NCBI GenBank assembly: GCA_964431915.1
Contig: CAYSLI010000002.1
Location: forward strand, 89,503 to 146,214
DNA: 56,712 nt
Source of the DNA: an uncultured Candidatus Saccharibacteria bacterium
Lineage (GTDB): Bacteria > Patescibacteriota > Minisyncoccia > Minisyncoccales > CAZKCU01
Direction: 5' to 3'
A program made the translations under genes and the position numbers. How positions within the stretch are numbered: the first letter of the stretch is position 1; every line of letters starts with the position of its first letter. This document shows positions 50,734-56,395 of this stretch, piece after piece. Under the pieces are notes generated by a model that ran no database searches, had not been told where the DNA came from, and saw only the letters and a list, made by a program, of their open reading frames with translations.

Positions 50734-50758
50734 TTAGTTTCTTAGAGTTGTCCCGAAA
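50734..50758 (+). other. 5' arm of the 16S processing stem (pairs with 54146-54170)
   Basis: TTAGTTTCTTAGAGTTGTCCCGAAA is the exact reverse complement of 54146-54170 (25 bp). Confidence 0.9.
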
Positions 50759-50770
50759 AAATTTTATTTT

Positions 50771-50810
<40 letters not shown>

Positions 50811-51272
50811 GATAAGGCATGCAAGTCGTACGGTCGTGCACATAACTTGTTATGTGTACGATAGTGGCGAACGGGTTAGTAACACGTAGATACAAACCCT
50901 ATTCACGAGTATAACTAATCGAAAGATTAGCTAATCCTCGATGGTCCGAGCATATAATTTTATTATGTGCTCGGTAAAGGTTTCTCAAGAAGCCGGAATG
51001 GGATTGGTCTGCGGCCTATCAGCTTGTTGGTGGGGTAATAGCCCACCAAGGCAATGACGGGTAGGGGAGATGAGAGTCTGTTCCCCAACAAGGGCACTGC
51101 GACACGGGCCCTACTCCTACGGGAGGCAGCAGTCGAGAATATTGGGCAATGGGCGAAAGCCTGACCCTGCGACGCCGCGTGCTCGAAGAAGCCCTTCGGG
51201 GTGTAAAGAGCTTTTCTAAGGGAAGAACCTTCGGGTGACGGTACCTTAGGAATAAGGGGGTGCTAACTCTGT

Positions 51273-52118
51273 GGGTCCAAATACGGACTAGGCGCAGAGC
51301 TCTGGTGGCAACATCGGAGGAGAAAATCTCGCTATATGCTGGAAACTCTATTTATGTCCGCTGAATTTCCTGATATTATTAATATAATATTTCAGGACGC
51401 GTAAATAGACAATCAGCAGGAAACTTTTATTAATTGAATAAAAGGCTCCTCAGAGACTACACGCGAGACCCCGCCAATATCTACAAGTTGTGGCGGGTGA
51501 TGATATAGTCCAGTTAAATCGTATGAATGAAGAAACCAAAGCAATCCTTATAGGATTAATCTTAGGTGATGGTTACCTTACTCCATTTATTGGCGCAAGT
51601 AGTCGATCTCGAATGGAGATAAAAGGCGACAATAAAAGTCTATCTTACCTCAAATGGTTACATTCACGATTAGAACCAATGGGGGTTTCGGATTTGAAGC
51701 CTAAGAAGAATTATCATCAGCATCGTTTCTATACCAAAACTACTGAAGAGATAGGAAAATTAAGAAAGTTATTTTATCCCAGAGGACAAAAAACTGTTCC
51801 ACGAAATATTAAAAAACTTCTTAAAAACCCACTCAGTCTAGCGGTTTGGTATCAAGACGATGGCACCTTGGATTGCCGTAGTAAATACCATTACAATGCA
51901 TCATTTGCTACATATTGTTTTTCGTTCAGCGATTGCAAGTTACTTGCAGAAGCATTGAGAGAAAATTTTAATCTTGATGCAAGAGTATGTAAATGTCAGA
52001 TGCGCGGAAAAATACGCTATCGACTTTACATCACTTCCTCAAGCATGAGTCATTTCATAAGTTTAATTAAGTCTTATGTAAATCCATGCTTTGAGTACAA
52101 AATTCGCGAGTTTAACTA
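51273..52118 (+). mobile_element. Group I intron at 16S position 516
   Basis: 5' exon CTCTGT pairs with the IGS GCAGAG (U.G at the splice site); P (ATGCTGGAAA), Q (AATCAGCAGG), R (TCAGAGACTAC) and S (GATATAGTCC) elements; P3 CTCGC/GCGAG. Confidence 0.92.
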
Positions 52119-52119
52119 G
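51523..52119 (+). CDS. Double-motif LAGLIDADG homing endonuclease in P9 of the group I intron
   Basis: LIGLILGDG and LAVWYQDDG motifs; ATG 51523. Confidence 0.92.
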   Translation: MNEETKAILIGLILGDGYLTPFIGASSRSRMEIKGDNKSLSYLKWLHSRLEPMGVSDLKPKKNYHQHRFYTKTTEEIGKLRKLFYPRGQKTVPRNIKKLLKNPLSLAVWYQDDGTLDCRSKYHYNASFATYCFSFSDCKLLAEALRENFNLDARVCKCQMRGKIRYRLYITSSSMSHFISLIKSYVNPCFEYKIREFN

Positions 52120-52993
52120 CCAGCAGCAGCGGTAATACAGAGCCCCCAAGCGTTATCCGGATTTATTGGGCGTAAAGAGTCTGTAGGCGCCCCGTCAGGT
52201 TTTCTGTTAAATCTCTAGGGCTTAACCTTAGAGCTGCAGAAAAAACCGGTGGGGTAGAGGGCGTTAGAGGCTGATGGAACGGTCGGTGTAGGGGTGAAAT
52301 CCGTTGATATCGACCGGAACACCGAAAGCGAAGGCATTCAGCTGGGGCGACCCTGACGCTGAGAGACGAAAGCGTAGGTAGCGACAAGGATTAGATACCC
52401 TTTTAGTCTACGCTGTAAACGATGGACACTGGCTATCTGAAGTGTCGACCCTTCAGGTGGCGAAGCTAACGCGTTAAGTGTCCCGCCTGGGAAGTACGAC
52501 GGCAACGTTAAAACTCAAAGGAATAGACGGGGACTCACACAAGCGGTGGACCATGTGGCTCAATTCGACAACAAACGAGGAACCTTACCAGGGCTTGACA
52601 AGCTAGTGAAAAGTTGAGGAAACTTGACTCTACCCACAAGGACACTAGCCCAGGTGCTGCATGGTTGTCGTCAGCATGTATCTTGAGACGCTCCCTTAAA
52701 TGGGGTAACATGCGCAACCCTTGCCCTATGTTTAATTTGTCATAGGGGACTGCCTTGGATAACAAGGAGGAAGGTGAGGATGACGCCAAATCAGCATGGC
52801 CCTTTGATGCCCTGGGCTGCACACATGGTACAATGGGGCCGACAATGGGTTGCTAAGCGGTAACGCGGAGCTAATCCCATCAAACGGCCTCTCAGTTCGG
52901 ATTAAGGTCTGCAACTCGACCTTATGAAGCTGGAATCGCTAGTAATCGCCAATCAGCTATGTGGCGATGAATATGTTTCTGAGTCTTGTACTC

Positions 52994-53907
52994 GGGCGAC
53001 CGGCAGCTAATTAAATTAGTTGGTTAGAATCCAACTAGAGAAACCGAAGATTCTCTAAAGCGAAATTACAGGTCAAAACCGCGAGGTTTTGGCTGAAGGG
53101 TGAAAGTAGCATTCTTTAGCTTGAATATTCGTTAAGGCATAGTAAGGTGGTAATCCTGCGAGTACATGGAGAAACCAACTTCGGAGAAAACTTTACTGTG
53201 TGTAGAACATCGAGATAAAGAAGAAATGTTTAATTAGTGACCCGGTGATATCTTGTAATTGTTCCCGAGGTAAGCTACAATATAATTGAGGTTAGTTTAC
53301 CTCAGGATAAAAGATAAGAGTAATTTTATTTCTATGCAATTGCAAGAAGTCAGCAGAGCTCATAGTACCCATAAGGGGAAGGAGCGAATTCAATCGATAA
53401 AAAAACTCCATCCGCAATATTTAGCAGGATTTATAGACGGTGAAGGAAGTTTTTCGGTAAGCATTTACAAAGATGAGAAAATGAGAAATAAGATTTTTGT
53501 CCGCCCGGAGTTTGAAATTGAGTTAAGAGCAGACGATCGCGAAATTCTTCAAAGAATTCAAAAAACCTTAGGATGCGGTAAAATCTATGAATGTAATTAT
53601 GAGAGATATGGTTGGTATCCCCATGTAAAATACAAGGTGAGCAGATTAGATGAAATTTCTGAAATTTTAATCCCATTTTTCGAAAAATGGCCGCTTCAAG
53701 CAAAGAAAGCAAAAGTATTCAAGCACTTTAAACGAATAATTAGAAAGAGAATAAATGGAGAGCATCTTACAGAGAGGGGAGTTGAGGAAATTATTAAATT
53801 GCGCGATAAAATTAGAGTTTTAGGTAAAAAACATCGATTGGAAACCGCTAGGATACGGGAAAACCGTTCGTCCAGTGGTGTGGGGCGATGAACTCATCGA
53901 TCCCAAT
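52994..53907 (+). mobile_element. Group II intron at 16S position ~1397
   Basis: 5' GGGCG; EBS1 GAGTAC (53160-65) complements the exon end GTACTC; DIII AAGTCAGCAGAGCTCATAGTA...GAAGGAGCGAA; DV CCGCTAGGATACGG-GAAA-ACCGTTCGTCCAGTGG; DVI with bulged A 8 nt from the terminal AT. Confidence 0.88.
53335..53891 (+). CDS. Single-motif LAGLIDADG homing endonuclease inside the group II intron
   Basis: YLAGFIDGEGSF...FEI...D..IL..IQKTLGCG...PFFEK.PL..KK; start uncertain (first ATG 53335). Confidence 0.9.
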
Positions 53908-54253
53908 ACCGCCCGTCACATTAAGGGAGCCGGCAGTAGCCGAAGTCCCACGCAAGTGGGCCTAAGCTAAAGTCGGTAACAAGAATGAAGTCGTAACAAG
54001 GCATGGGTAGCGGAAGCTGTCCATGGATCACTACATTTTAAATTTTTCTAAATTTAAACTTAGAAAAATTAGTGTTGACTAGAGTTGAAGTCTGGAATTC
54101 GGGTTTTAACTCTAAGGTGTTGGTCTTGGTACCTTAAAGCGAGACTTTCGGGACAACTCTAAGAAACTAACGGCAATGCCAAAATCCGCACTTTTAAAGT
54201 GCGTTTTTTTGTTGAGTTGATTTTTAATTCAATTTCTGCTATATTATTGCTGT

Positions 54254-54730
54254 ATGGCAATTCCTCAAAAAGTAATTAAATTTCTTGAGAAAGCTAAAGT
54301 TAAATATGAACCAGTAAAACACAAGACAGTTTATACTGCCCATGATAAGGCAGCGACTTTAAGGGTTCCGGAAAAAATTGTTGGCAAGACCCTGGTAATG
54401 AAGTTTGACCGAAATGTGGGCTTAGTTTTAATTCCGGCAAACAAGAACCTTGATAAGGTAAAATTTAAAAAAATAGCAAAAGCAAAAAAGGTTGATTTTG
54501 TAAAAGAGGCCTGGATGAAGAAAAATTTGAAAGGAGTAAAAGTTGGAGCAATTCCATCCTTCGGTAATTTGTTTAAATTACCAACTTTTGTTGAGAAGTC
54601 TTTATTAAGAAATCCCAAAATTATTTTAAACTCCGGCGATTATAATTTTTCGATAAAAATTAGCATCATTAATTTCAAGAAATTGATACCCGACCTAATA
54701 ACTGAGAGTTTTGGAAAAGCTAAAAAATAA
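54254..54730 (+). CDS. YbaK/prolyl-tRNA editing family protein
   Basis: H..VYTA.D.A..L......VGKTLV and GAIPSFG. Confidence 0.88.
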   Translation: MAIPQKVIKFLEKAKVKYEPVKHKTVYTAHDKAATLRVPEKIVGKTLVMKFDRNVGLVLIPANKNLDKVKFKKIAKAKKVDFVKEAWMKKNLKGVKVGAIPSFGNLFKLPTFVEKSLLRNPKIILNSGDYNFSIKISIINFKKLIPDLITESFGKAKK

Positions 54731-54733
54731 TTT

Positions 54734-54809
54734 GGGCAGGTAGTTCAGTGGTTAGAACGCTGCTCTGATAAAGCAGAGGTCGGAGGTTCGATTCCTCCTC
54801 TGCCCACCA
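54734..54809 (+). tRNA. tRNA-Ile(GAT)
   Basis: CTGCT-CT-GAT-AA-AGCAG anticodon arm; GGTTCGATTCC T arm; encoded CCA. Confidence 0.97.
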
Positions 54810-54817
54810 GATTCTCT

Positions 54818-54892
54818 GGGCCCTTAGCTCAATGGCAGAGCATCGGTTTTGCATACCGAAGGTTGGGAGTTCAAATCTCCCAGGGTCCACCA
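54818..54892 (+). tRNA. tRNA-Ala(TGC), integration target
   Basis: TCGGT-TT-TGC-AT-ACCGA anticodon arm; G3:U70; encoded CCA. Confidence 0.96.
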
Positions 54893-56395
54893 AATACGAT
54901 TTGACGAGTTTTCCGCCTCGCTCGGGCATTCCGCCCTCGCTTCGGCGGGTAAAAAATAAAGTAAATTCCAGGGTTTTTTGAAATCAATTTCCAATCGCCC
55001 ACGGGCAAGGCGGCGGTTCAAGCCGATTTTTTTAAGAAAATTTTTCATCTCGGAAAAATTTCCTTGCAAAGCGAGATTTTTGGCTTGGTTGGCTTCCAAA
55101 ATCCAGTTTCGGGTGAGTTCAAGCCAATGATTACCTTTTCGCTCAAAATCACTCAATTTTTCCTCTTTTGTTTTCTTTTCCGCCATTAGGGCGTTTTTTG
55201 TTTGCTGATATTCCGCCAGTTCCATTGCTTCCGCAAGGTAAGCGTTGGTCAATCTTTCCATTTTTGTTTTAATGGCGGAAATTTCTTTTCTGAGATTTTG
55301 AGCGAAAAGATCTGATGTTTGGCGGTTCTCATTTTCCCATTTTTTCAATTTGCTTAAATATCTATCTCGCCAAACATCAGGCAAAGAAACTTTTTGACAA
55401 TAATTTTTTATTTGCTTGGCAAAATTTTCCTCCCGCAAAAAGCGTCTTTGAGAGCATTTTTGAATTTTGCTTTTGTATGTACAGTGGTAATAAATAAATT
55501 CCAATCCGCTTTTTTTAATTTGCTTTTCCGCTGTAACGGCATAGCCGCATTCTCCGCATTTAGCAAAATTCAAAAACTTAAAATCTTTTTCTTTGCGCTT
55601 TTTGCGGGGTTTGCCGTTGTCTTTTAACGCCTGCTGTATTTGGTCAAAAAGTTTCTTTGAAATCATTGGCTTATGGCTCCCTTGGTGAATTTCGCCGCGA
55701 TAGCGAAAATGTCCATAGTAAAAAGGATTTGTCAAAATATGCTGAATTGTAGAGAGATGAAGCGGTTTTCCCTCTTTGCCAACCAAGCCAAGAGAAAACA
55801 TTTTGCTTTGAATTTTTGTTAGCGTATATTCGCCAGTGGCAAAAGCCCTTAAAACTTCCTTCACTTTGTTAAAAGTTCTTTTATCAGGTTCAATCGTTCT
55901 TAATCTCGGTTCGTTGAAATATCCGAGCGGGGCTTTTGCCGAAAGTTCGCCTCGCCTGATTTTCTGCCGTATTCCTCTTAAAATGTTTTCTCTTAAATTG
56001 TCGGTGTAATATTTCGCTTGTCCAAAAGCAACGCTCAACATAAATTTTCCCTGTGGCGTTGGTTCAAACCAAAAAGTAGGGAATTTTAGCGATTTGATTT
56101 TCTCGTTATCCACGAGATAAATAATTTTTCCGCCGTCAACGGAATTGCGAGCAAGTCTGTCGGGATTCCACGCTAAAATTCCCTGGGCGTTTCCTTTTTC
56201 AATTCTCGCGAGCATTTGATTAAATATTTCTCTACCTGGCTCTTTGGCTGTTTTACTTTCAGTCCATTCGCGAACAATAAAAAGATTGTTTTGCTTGGCA
56301 AACTCTCTTAATTCGGCAAGCTGGGCTTCTATGCTCAAAACCTGCCTTTCCTCGTCCTCTGACGATTTTCTGCAATAAATGAAATATTTAATCAT
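54824..56395 (-). CDS. Large serine recombinase (resolvase, recombinase and zinc-ribbon domains)
   Basis: YCRKSSEDEERQ..SIEAQ catalytic Ser, SAKEPGR..F, DRLAR, NPFYYG and CGECG...YYHC; last 23 codons are antisense tRNA-Ala; AAGGAG RBS at 56405-10. Confidence 0.95.
   Translation of the reverse strand: MIKYFIYCRKSSEDEERQVLSIEAQLAELREFAKQNNLFIVREWTESKTAKEPGREIFNQMLARIEKGNAQGILAWNPDRLARNSVDGGKIIYLVDNEKIKSLKFPTFWFEPTPQGKFMLSVAFGQAKYYTDNLRENILRGIRQKIRRGELSAKAPLGYFNEPRLRTIEPDKRTFNKVKEVLRAFATGEYTLTKIQSKMFSLGLVGKEGKPLHLSTIQHILTNPFYYGHFRYRGEIHQGSHKPMISKKLFDQIQQALKDNGKPRKKRKEKDFKFLNFAKCGECGYAVTAEKQIKKSGLEFIYYHCTYKSKIQKCSQRRFLREENFAKQIKNYCQKVSLPDVWRDRYLSKLKKWENENRQTSDLFAQNLRKEISAIKTKMERLTNAYLAEAMELAEYQQTKNALMAEKKTKEEKLSDFERKGNHWLELTRNWILEANQAKNLALQGNFSEMKNFLKKIGLNRRLARGRLEIDFKKPWNLLYFLPAEARAECPSEAENSSNRIWWTLGDLNSQPSVCKTDALPLS
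54887..55020 (-). repeat. Left copy of a 134-bp perfect inverted repeat (tRNA CCACCA end plus recombinase 3' region)
   Basis: Base-by-base reverse complement of 56534-56667. Confidence 0.97.

Follow-up and report, generated by a model that had tools for sequence, protein, structure and literature searches.

The window analysed here, a stretch of 56,712 nucleotides from an uncultured Candidatus Saccharibacteria bacterium (GenBank assembly GCA_964431915.1, contig CAYSLI010000002.1, positions 89,503 to 146,214), contains a 16S ribosomal RNA (rRNA) gene that starts at position 50765 of the window and is interrupted by two insertions (Rfam). The SSU_rRNA_bacteria match covers 50765-53035 and carries an insertion of 852 nucleotides. 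The first insertion is found at Escherichia coli position 516/517, within the universally conserved GUGCCAGCAGCCGCGGUAA block, and shows an Intron_gpI match at 51263-51531 (75.3 bits against a gathering score of 50, E 2.4e-17). From its sequence it is a mobile group I intron that occupies 16S position 516, contains an I-SceI-like LAGLIDADG open reading frame (ORF) in the loop of its last helix, and probably ends in A. The intron and its junctions show the following parts (P, paired segment; J, joining segment; a slash inside a sequence marks a boundary or splice junction):

51267-51272, + strand: last six bases of the 5' exon, CUCUGU (16S 511-516), the exon strand of P1, pairing with GCAGAG at 51294-51299.
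51273-52118, + strand: group I intron of 846 nucleotides at site S516, ending in A in the favoured register (Rfam, fold, relatives).
51273-51289, + strand: P1 extension, the pair G51273-C51293 and then a hairpin of 5 base pairs (51274-51278 with 51285-51289).
51291-51299, + strand: internal guide sequence (IGS) GGC/GCAGAG, with 51294-51299 in P1 and 51291-51293 in P10.
51300-51319, + strand: P2, a hairpin of 8 base pairs with a GCAA tetraloop (fold).
51327-51468, + strand: P3 (51327-51332 with 51463-51468), which encloses P4, P5, P6 and the 5' strand of P7 (minimum free energy (MFE) fold, Rfam alignment).
51338-51342 with 51413-51417, + strand: P4 (MFE fold, Rfam alignment).
51347-51409, + strand: extended P5 (MFE fold, Rfam alignment).
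51418-51450, + strand: P6 (MFE fold, Rfam alignment).
51453-51459, + strand: 5' strand of P7, GAGACUA, with A51454 bulged and G51455-C51510 as the guanosine-binding pair.
51470-51497, + strand: P8 hairpin (fold).
51506-51511, + strand: 3' strand of P7, UAGUCC, preceded by J8/7 GAUGAUA (conservation of AUAGUCC).
51512-51519, + strand: 5' strand of P9.0/P9, AGUUAAAU, directly after P7, pairing with 52110-52117.
51523-52119, + strand: homing endonuclease ORF of 198 amino acids, I-SceI-like with two LAGLIDADG motifs, in the P9.0/P9 loop (Pfam PF03161).
52110-52117, + strand: 3' strand of P9.0/P9, GUUUAACU, which doubles as the last endonuclease codons (pairing, covariation).
52118, + strand: proposed terminal (omega) nucleotide, A in place of G, the sole base that separates the 3' strand of P9.0 from the exon strand of P10.
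52119-52121, + strand: first three bases of the 3' exon, G517, C518 and C519, the P10 exon strand, which restore GUGCCAGC.

All features that a first-pass annotation of the window had described from its letters were found again in the sequence, Rfam, fold and Pfam analyses. The unconstrained MFE fold of 51260-51530 gives P1, P2, P3, P4, the extended P5, P6 and P8 (z = -5.2 against shuffles). P1 has 7 base pairs, includes the wobble U51272.G51294, which predicts a 5' splice site after U51272 (U516), and is paired in all 24 aligned relatives. The motif AUAGUCC is missing from only a few of the site-516 introns examined, most site-516 introns with an ORF-free P8 have CAGAGACUACAC and GAUGAUAUAGUCC unchanged or one to two bases off, and the GG[C/U] of the guide sequence is kept among relatives. 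The P7 guanosine-binding pair is normal, as described before: GAGACUA/UAGUCC with a bulged A and G51455-C51510. The element thus shows the catalytic core of a group I intron, the U.G wobble in P1, and P9.0 and P10 around the 3' splice site; the terminal G of such introns, a feature that is near-universal and not absolute, is replaced by A52118 in the favoured register. The predicted combination of a non-G terminal base and a restored exon is that of natural introns lacking the terminal G.

Group I introns have two nucleotides that are conserved above all others, and the terminal G, one of them, defines the 3' splice site in textbooks and in annotation software. In the window, the 5' junction reads ...GCTAACTCTGT up to 51272, followed by G51273 and GGTCC, and the 3' junction reads ...GAGTTTAACTA up to 52118 (also given as ...TTTAACTA), followed by G52119 and CCAGCAGCAGCGGTAATAC. 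Exactly one G, G52119, separates ...AACTA from CCAGCAGC, as previously claimed. Since the first intron base, G51273, is the same letter as the G52119 preceding CCAGC, two registers restore GUGCCAGC, which is obtained only when G52119 is exonic or, in a slid register, when G51273 is. Register (i) places the intron at 51273-52118, with a cut after the U of the U.G wobble and A as the terminal base. In register (ii) the intron is 51274-52119, with a terminal G and a cut after the G-C pair located one nucleotide 3' of the wobble. A further possibility (iii) is a cut after U516 with G52119 as the terminal G, which leaves the mature rRNA without position 517. The first-pass annotation was right that G517 is needed for GUGCCAGC, and missed that register (ii) supplies it equally well. 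It was also right that the IGS base C pairs with the exon GCC in P10, and this pairing was expected to assign the G to the exon; the IGS GGC/GCAGAG pairs with the ligated exons CUCUGU-GCC under registers (i) and (ii) alike, so it does not decide between them. The choice between these two registers is not settled by the window sequence alone.

Related introns were collected in two independent samples, which gave 199 fetched loci and a comparison set of about 110 introns (loci are numbered with the prefix L). The genome sample, in which one genome per species was scanned for a non-T base before GCCAGCAGCNGCGGTAATAC, gave 119 loci, mostly metagenome-assembled genomes (MAGs) of Patescibacteria with an insertion at site 516. 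The metagenome sample, in which contigs were scanned with an endonuclease alignment and the junction was not considered, gave 80 loci, of which 79 were tabulated. The genome-scan pattern excluded T before G by design, which leaves the endonuclease-based sample as the only one without bias for that base. The related loci come overwhelmingly from Patescibacteria MAGs. In the endonuclease-based sample, CCAGC is preceded by the following pairs of bases:

AG: 58 of 79 loci, 32 distinct 30-mer flanks.
GG: 18 of 79 loci, 14 distinct 30-mer flanks.
CG: 2 of 79 loci, 2 distinct 30-mer flanks.
TA: 1 of 79 loci, 1 distinct 30-mer flank.
TG: 0 of 79 loci, 0 distinct 30-mer flanks.

A consensus or assembly error that dropped one G from a true ...CTAGG CCAGC had been named in the first-pass annotation as what would refute the terminal A. 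Single-base errors occur at homopolymers, but the same single-G junction recurs in 58 loci with 32 distinct flanks, across dozens of independent assemblies from many samples and assemblers, and also in GenBank MAGs. Because of this recurrence the junction is not an assembly artefact, and the chance of such an error is negligible. The survey of site-516 introns for the terminal base, which the same annotation had called for, shows that the ending is not a singularity of the window: terminal A is predicted to be the majority state of this mobile endonuclease clade, and recurrent across the family. The position homologous to A52118 is G, A or C in relatives.

The evidence that carries register (i) comes from the relatives. 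Introns that begin with A and end ...A/GCCAGC with a single G were found at L153/L154, L160, L002, L051, L061 and L094, which represent six non-redundant introns of at least four lineages. The endonucleases of L153/L154 and L160 show 65% and 62% identity to that of the window, L002, L051 and L061 are ORF-less, and L153, L160, L002, L051 and L061 pass the Rfam group I gathering score. The guide sequence of these relatives has the matching U, GGU/GCAGAG. Because their 5' side lacks a G517, GUGCCAGC is obtained only with a terminal A. L159 and L141, which start with G, and L036, without a recognisable P1 near the junction, were dropped from the unambiguous cases. Other A-starting relatives have the fully canonical ending GG (L156, L188, L040, L032, L112 and L115); in these, therefore, the cut of the same P1 architecture falls after U516.

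These introns bear directly on register (ii), in which the 5' exon would end with G51273 as G517 (site S517), the intron would end in G52119, and A52118 would be a one-base spacer after P9.0. This register keeps the canonical terminal G and restores GUGCCAGC in the window, but it moves the 5' cut one nucleotide 3' of the wobble, in a P1 architecture unambiguously cut after U516 in the six A-starting, GG-ending relatives, and it would put A517 (GUACCAGC) in the 16S rRNA of the A-starting, A-ending ones. It also requires introns to start with G, and A-starting introns are not depleted among A-ending members (6 of 29, against 8 of 36 G-ending ones); an equal share fits an intronic first base in both classes and would not be expected if that base were G517 in the A-ending class. 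The first intron base is paired with the base 5' of the wobble G in all of 24 A-ending introns (G-C in 14, A-U in 6, G-U in 4, unpaired in 0), a pattern that is consistent with ordinary P1-extension covariation. Of the C-ending relatives, five have a known 5' junction, and each of them starts with G, as register (ii) needs, although this association is not significant (about 0.2 by chance). No well-defined member has A opposite U516, in a search whose finder required G there. Register (ii) is therefore considered unlikely.

The second line of evidence is the geometry of the 3' splice site. As noted in the first-pass annotation, the AG directly after P7 (51512-51513) is paired with CU (52116-52117). 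These two pairs belong to a helix of 8 base pairs, AGUUAAAU (51512-51519) with GUUUAACU (52110-52117), which is flush with P7, encloses the whole ORF and stops one base before A52118. In 24 non-redundant A-ending introns P9.0 shows covariation (AG/CU, AUC/GAU, AAUU/AAUU, GAC/GUC and ACUU/AGGU are examples). With the register ending one base before A, 69.8% of the P9.0 cells are paired and the covariation score is 0.476, against 42.2% and 42.2% paired and scores of 0.181 and 0.216 when the 3' strand is slid by -1 and +1. The observed pairing and covariation were reached by 0 of 500 shuffles and are significant in this register only. On the other side of A52118, P10 has 3 base pairs (G52119-C51293, C52120-G51292 and C52121-G51291) and continues P1 without a gap; in relatives it is formed by G517-C/U, C518-G and C519-G. 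Since P9.0 ends before A52118 and P10 starts at G52119, A52118 is the single nucleotide between both helices.

The 3' splice site of group I introns is defined by the P9.0 and P10 helices (PMC6155759), and both are reported to increase strongly the affinity of the Tetrahymena ribozyme for guanosine substrates (PMC2588497). In the cryo-electron microscopy structure of the second step of the Tetrahymena large-subunit intron, the residues immediately 5' of the terminal G form P9.0, which is stacked on P7 as two pairs, G313-C413 and A314-U412; P7 shows the layout C262/A263/G264, with G264-C311 as the guanosine-binding pair (PMC10020454). The window intron shares the bulged A in P7, the G-C guanosine pair, P9.0 on P7 and P10 aligning the 3' exon, and it shows the same geometry, A52118 taking the position of the terminal G and G51455-C51510 that of G264-C311. 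The two differ in the terminal base (G in Tetrahymena, A in the window) and in P9.0, which has 2 base pairs in Tetrahymena and is an 8-base-pair helix enclosing a 600-nucleotide ORF in the window. A flush canonical P9.0 of 2 base pairs was sought in the G-ending relatives and is mostly absent, so that the A-ending class and the Tetrahymena structure, and not these relatives, carry the register argument.

The same geometry bears on possibility (iii), with the 5' cut after U516, the 3' cut after G52119 as terminal G, and a mature 16S rRNA without position 517 (GUCCAGC). Here the U.G wobble and the terminal G are both canonical, and nearly all loci (78 of 79) have a G before CCAGC. However, P10 would be out of register, with C518 opposite C or U, and one base would stand between P9.0 and the terminal G, unlike the Tetrahymena geometry. 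A universally conserved base of the 530 loop would be deleted in roughly half of the carriers of the family, whereas intron-less relatives and G-ending carriers have GUGCCAGC. This possibility appears slightly less likely still than register (ii). The reading with terminal A52118 and exonic G52119, already preferred in the first-pass annotation, is best supported by sequence comparison, by the A-starting relatives, the P9.0 covariation, the Tetrahymena geometry and P10 together.

With A as terminal base, the first step would be conventional, with an exogenous G attacking after U516, the U of the P1 wobble. In the second step, the 3' splice site would be set by two helices one nucleotide apart: the 8-base-pair P9.0/P9 stacked on P7, and the 3-base-pair P10 continuing P1. 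The nucleotide between them is A52118, so that the intron would end in A and G52119 would become G517 of the mature rRNA. The guanosine-binding pocket is unchanged, and the long flush P9.0 together with P10 would replace the binding energy of terminal-G recognition. A change in this pocket, such as an altered P7 pair, was sought in the A-ending introns and none was found, CAGAGACUACAC and GAUGAUAUAGUCC being the same in both classes.

The family shows a relation between the terminal base and the length of the last helix. On a neighbour-joining (NJ) tree of 50 intron cores, parsimony requires at least 15 changes of the base preceding the last G, and close G/A pairs were found in L001 and L177 (...AAUCUG/G against ...AAUCUA/G), L118 and L107, and L189 and L117. 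A helix of at least 3 base pairs flush with both P7 and the terminal base is present in 24 of 31 A- or C-ending introns and in 1 of 36 G-ending ones. In 14 phylogenetically independent contrasts the flush helix of the non-G member is longer in 10, shorter in one and tied in three (sign test p = 0.006). From this correlation it is proposed that the long P9.0 clamp may compensate for the lost base-specific contact. A wider proposal, held at slightly less than even confidence, is that Patescibacteria harbour, at site 516, a large natural family of group I ribozymes with a relaxed terminal nucleotide (G, A and possibly C) and repeated switches, in which the choice of the 3' splice site moved from guanosine-pocket binding to a clamp formed by the long P9.0 on P7 and by P10. 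If so, the three close pairs would be a natural matched G/A series for the second step without a terminal G.

Several C-class introns were found at the same site (...AUC G/CCAGC): L011/L169, L013, L031, L034 and L041, and also, without a known 5' junction, L054 and L180. In L013, L034 and L041 the flush P9.0 helix ends just before the C. Either these members have a terminal C or their register has slid by one base. L182, a metagenome contig of 1015 nucleotides, shows the 3' junction ...GTTACTA/CCAGCAGCTG with no G before CCAGC, and its 5' junction is off the contig; possible reasons are a sequencing error, decay of the copy, or a G517 supplied from the 5' side. Short ORF-less introns of 230-460 nucleotides are present at the same site in L015 and L046 (Planctomycetes MAGs) and in L021 and L037 (Omnitrophota MAGs); further short ORF-less site-516 introns are L003, L008, L027, L042, L044, L045, L064, L081 and L093. 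Most of them begin with GCCAGC, a copy of the 3' exon start, the exceptions being L037 (GTTGAA) and L093 (GGCAGC). L015 and L046 are above the Rfam group I threshold; therefore site-516 group I introns are not confined to Patescibacteria.

The following points weigh against a terminal A in the window. The first intron base is G here, and the slid register gives an identical mature rRNA. In the G-ending L065, L156 and L040 the last helix is separated from the terminal G by one or two unpaired bases, so that an arrangement helix-A-G/C is not excluded by geometry alone; such unpaired bases also favour register (ii). The search for 5' junctions required a wobble G, so the invariance of the U.G pair is partly built in. 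The contrasts use a crude NJ tree. Transcripts or intron-less copies showing the ligated exons were sought with the L153 exons as a spurious minus-strand ORF (...CCWH(=GUG)RVS...) in a collection of 5.8 billion proteins, and none of the 18 matches is identical; all matches spanning the ligated L153 site read CCWH. Finally, mutations of the terminal G to A block exon ligation in model ribozymes (Tetrahymena work).

This intolerance of A by model ribozymes and the near-universal terminal G, together with the unchanged guanosine pocket, also favour another explanation: that the A-ending intron is impaired or not self-splicing, and is removed with a protein cofactor (the endonuclease as a maturase, or a host helicase) or by another route. 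Most A-ending members do carry the endonuclease; ORF-less A-ending members nevertheless exist (L002, L051, L061, L087, L080 and L083). On the core tree the A state was gained or lost at least about 15 times, and it spreads between hosts. As these genomes normally have one copy of the 16S gene, the intron must be removed efficiently. Impairment is thus improbable, to the same degree as register (ii).

The window intron and the L120-type intron show 90.7% identity over the whole length, while the 16S exons of the L120-type hosts show about 82.5% identity to those of the window. Across L120-L128, compared with window positions 50765-52985, the intron reaches up to 90.7% identity and the host 16S exons 81-89%. 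As the intron is better conserved than the host exons, the A-ending intron appears to have moved recently between divergent hosts, and such a recent horizontal spread argues for a working, not a decaying, A-ending intron.

The endonuclease ORF matches LAGLIDADG_2 (PF03161) with an E value of 1.1e-35 over profile positions 2-168 of 168, and 167 homologues were found, mostly of 198 amino acids. Residues L14, G15, D16, G17 and Y110, D112, D113, G114 are invariant in 26 endonuclease sequences. The nearest solved relative is I-SceI (PDB 1R7M; E about 6e-13, residues 9-194), whose motifs are represented in the window enzyme, itself predicted from sequence, by LGDG at 14-17 and YxDDG at 110-114. The profile match and the two conserved acidic motifs thus identify an I-SceI-like LAGLIDADG enzyme; I-SceI itself originates from an intron in the yeast mitochondrial 21S rRNA, unlike the bacterial 16S intron of the window.

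The stop codon of this ORF is formed by U52117, A52118 and G52119, and it spans the junction as UA/G, as had been observed earlier together with the position of the ORF in the loop of P9.0/P9. Under the terminal-A reading it would be complete only with the 3' exon attached, and a properly terminated endonuclease would therefore need the precursor or an intron-3' exon intermediate. The stop codon was considered as a general cause of the terminal A and ruled out, because A-ending relatives read into the exon, stop upstream or have no ORF. Whatever the terminal base (A, G or C), the ORFs of relatives run over the splice site (...SQQQR and stop), stop upstream or are absent. The UA/G arrangement is thus present here and is not general; the stop codon exploits the terminal A in this clade without explaining it generally. 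Readthrough into the 16S exon, with a stop at the UAA of GGUAAUAC, is shown by L153, L146, L168, L022, L011, L112, L189 and L194; it adds (S, G or R)QQQR, the first residue being dictated by the terminal base of the intron.

Eukaryotic nuclear S516 introns, for example those of Naegleria, occupy the same site after U516 of the small-subunit rRNA; introns of the Naegleria type have a terminal G and His-Cys box endonucleases, some in twin-ribozyme arrangements. To our knowledge, Cbu.L1917, in the 23S rRNA of Coxiella burnetii, is the only natural intron known without a terminal G; it reportedly has a terminal A and a normal guanosine pocket. Like the window intron, it is a bacterial rRNA group I intron without the canonical terminal G; unlike it, it is a single element at 23S position 1917 in another host lineage, whereas in the mobile 16S endonuclease clade the A ending appears to be the majority state, recurrent and accompanied by a long P9.0 flush with P7. 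Cbu.L1917 is called self-splicing in the title of its report (Raghavan et al., 2007, J Bacteriol 189:6572; reference 29 of PMC11270868), a natural precedent that speaks against impaired splicing of A-ending introns.

The intron family itself is already described. Group I introns with LAGLIDADG_2 ORFs occur at several conserved 16S sites in bacteria of the candidate phyla radiation (CPR) (Tsurumaki et al., 2024, PMC11270868), and the window intron shows the features that define them: a conserved 16S site, a LAGLIDADG_2 ORF of about 200 amino acids, ORF-less relatives with a near-identical core, and signs of horizontal spread. That study contains no analysis of splice sites or of the terminal nucleotide, and no report of non-G termini in Patescibacteria introns was found in the literature searched. 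What would be new is the terminal A, not the class of element. If the terminal-A reading is correct, a terminal A would be common and recurrent in a widespread intron family and would have a structural correlate, the extended flush P9.0; natural matched pairs would be available to biochemists studying exon ligation without guanosine recognition; mapping rules that demand a terminal G would set the borders of these introns one base off, and the resulting 16S sequences would show a false deletion or insertion within the 515F primer region; and a stop codon present only on RNA with the 3' exon would link endonuclease expression to delayed exon ligation.

Other features were found around the 16S gene. 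A second 16S intron lies near position 1390-1400 (window 52986-53906). Its sequence matches group II D1-D4 models at 53075-53236 and 53309-53384 (Rfam) and contains an ORF (53331-53891) matching LAGLIDADG_1; the exon resumes at ACCGCCCGTCA (53908). The junction CTTGTAC/.../ACCGCCCG appears two bases short of E. coli, the boundaries being approximate. Endonuclease-carrying group II introns at 16S position ~1400 are known (Tsurumaki et al., 2024, PMC11270868), and the second intron matches them. In the 530 loop, the pseudoknot pair G505-C526 is replaced by U505-A526 (window 51261 and 52128), a compensatory change, and the GCAGCAGCGG form is common to most of the related Patescibacteria loci. The 3' end of the 16S gene (54020-54040) reads ...GGAUCACUACAUUUU, and the anti-Shine-Dalgarno CCUCC usual after GGAUCAC is absent. 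A perfect inverted repeat of 25 base pairs surrounds the gene (50734-50758 and 54146-54170, TTAGTTTCTTAGAGTTGTCCCGAAA and TTTCGGGACAACTCTAAGAAACTAA) and is probably a precursor processing stem. No 23S gene follows the 16S gene (window 54254-56395); this region contains an ORF with an aminoacyl-tRNA editing domain (54254-54730), two tRNAs (54734-54806 and 54818-54889) and, on the minus strand up to 56395 and abutting the tRNAs, a large serine recombinase (Resolvase, Recombinase and zinc ribbon), a position next to tRNAs that suggests the edge of an integrated element.

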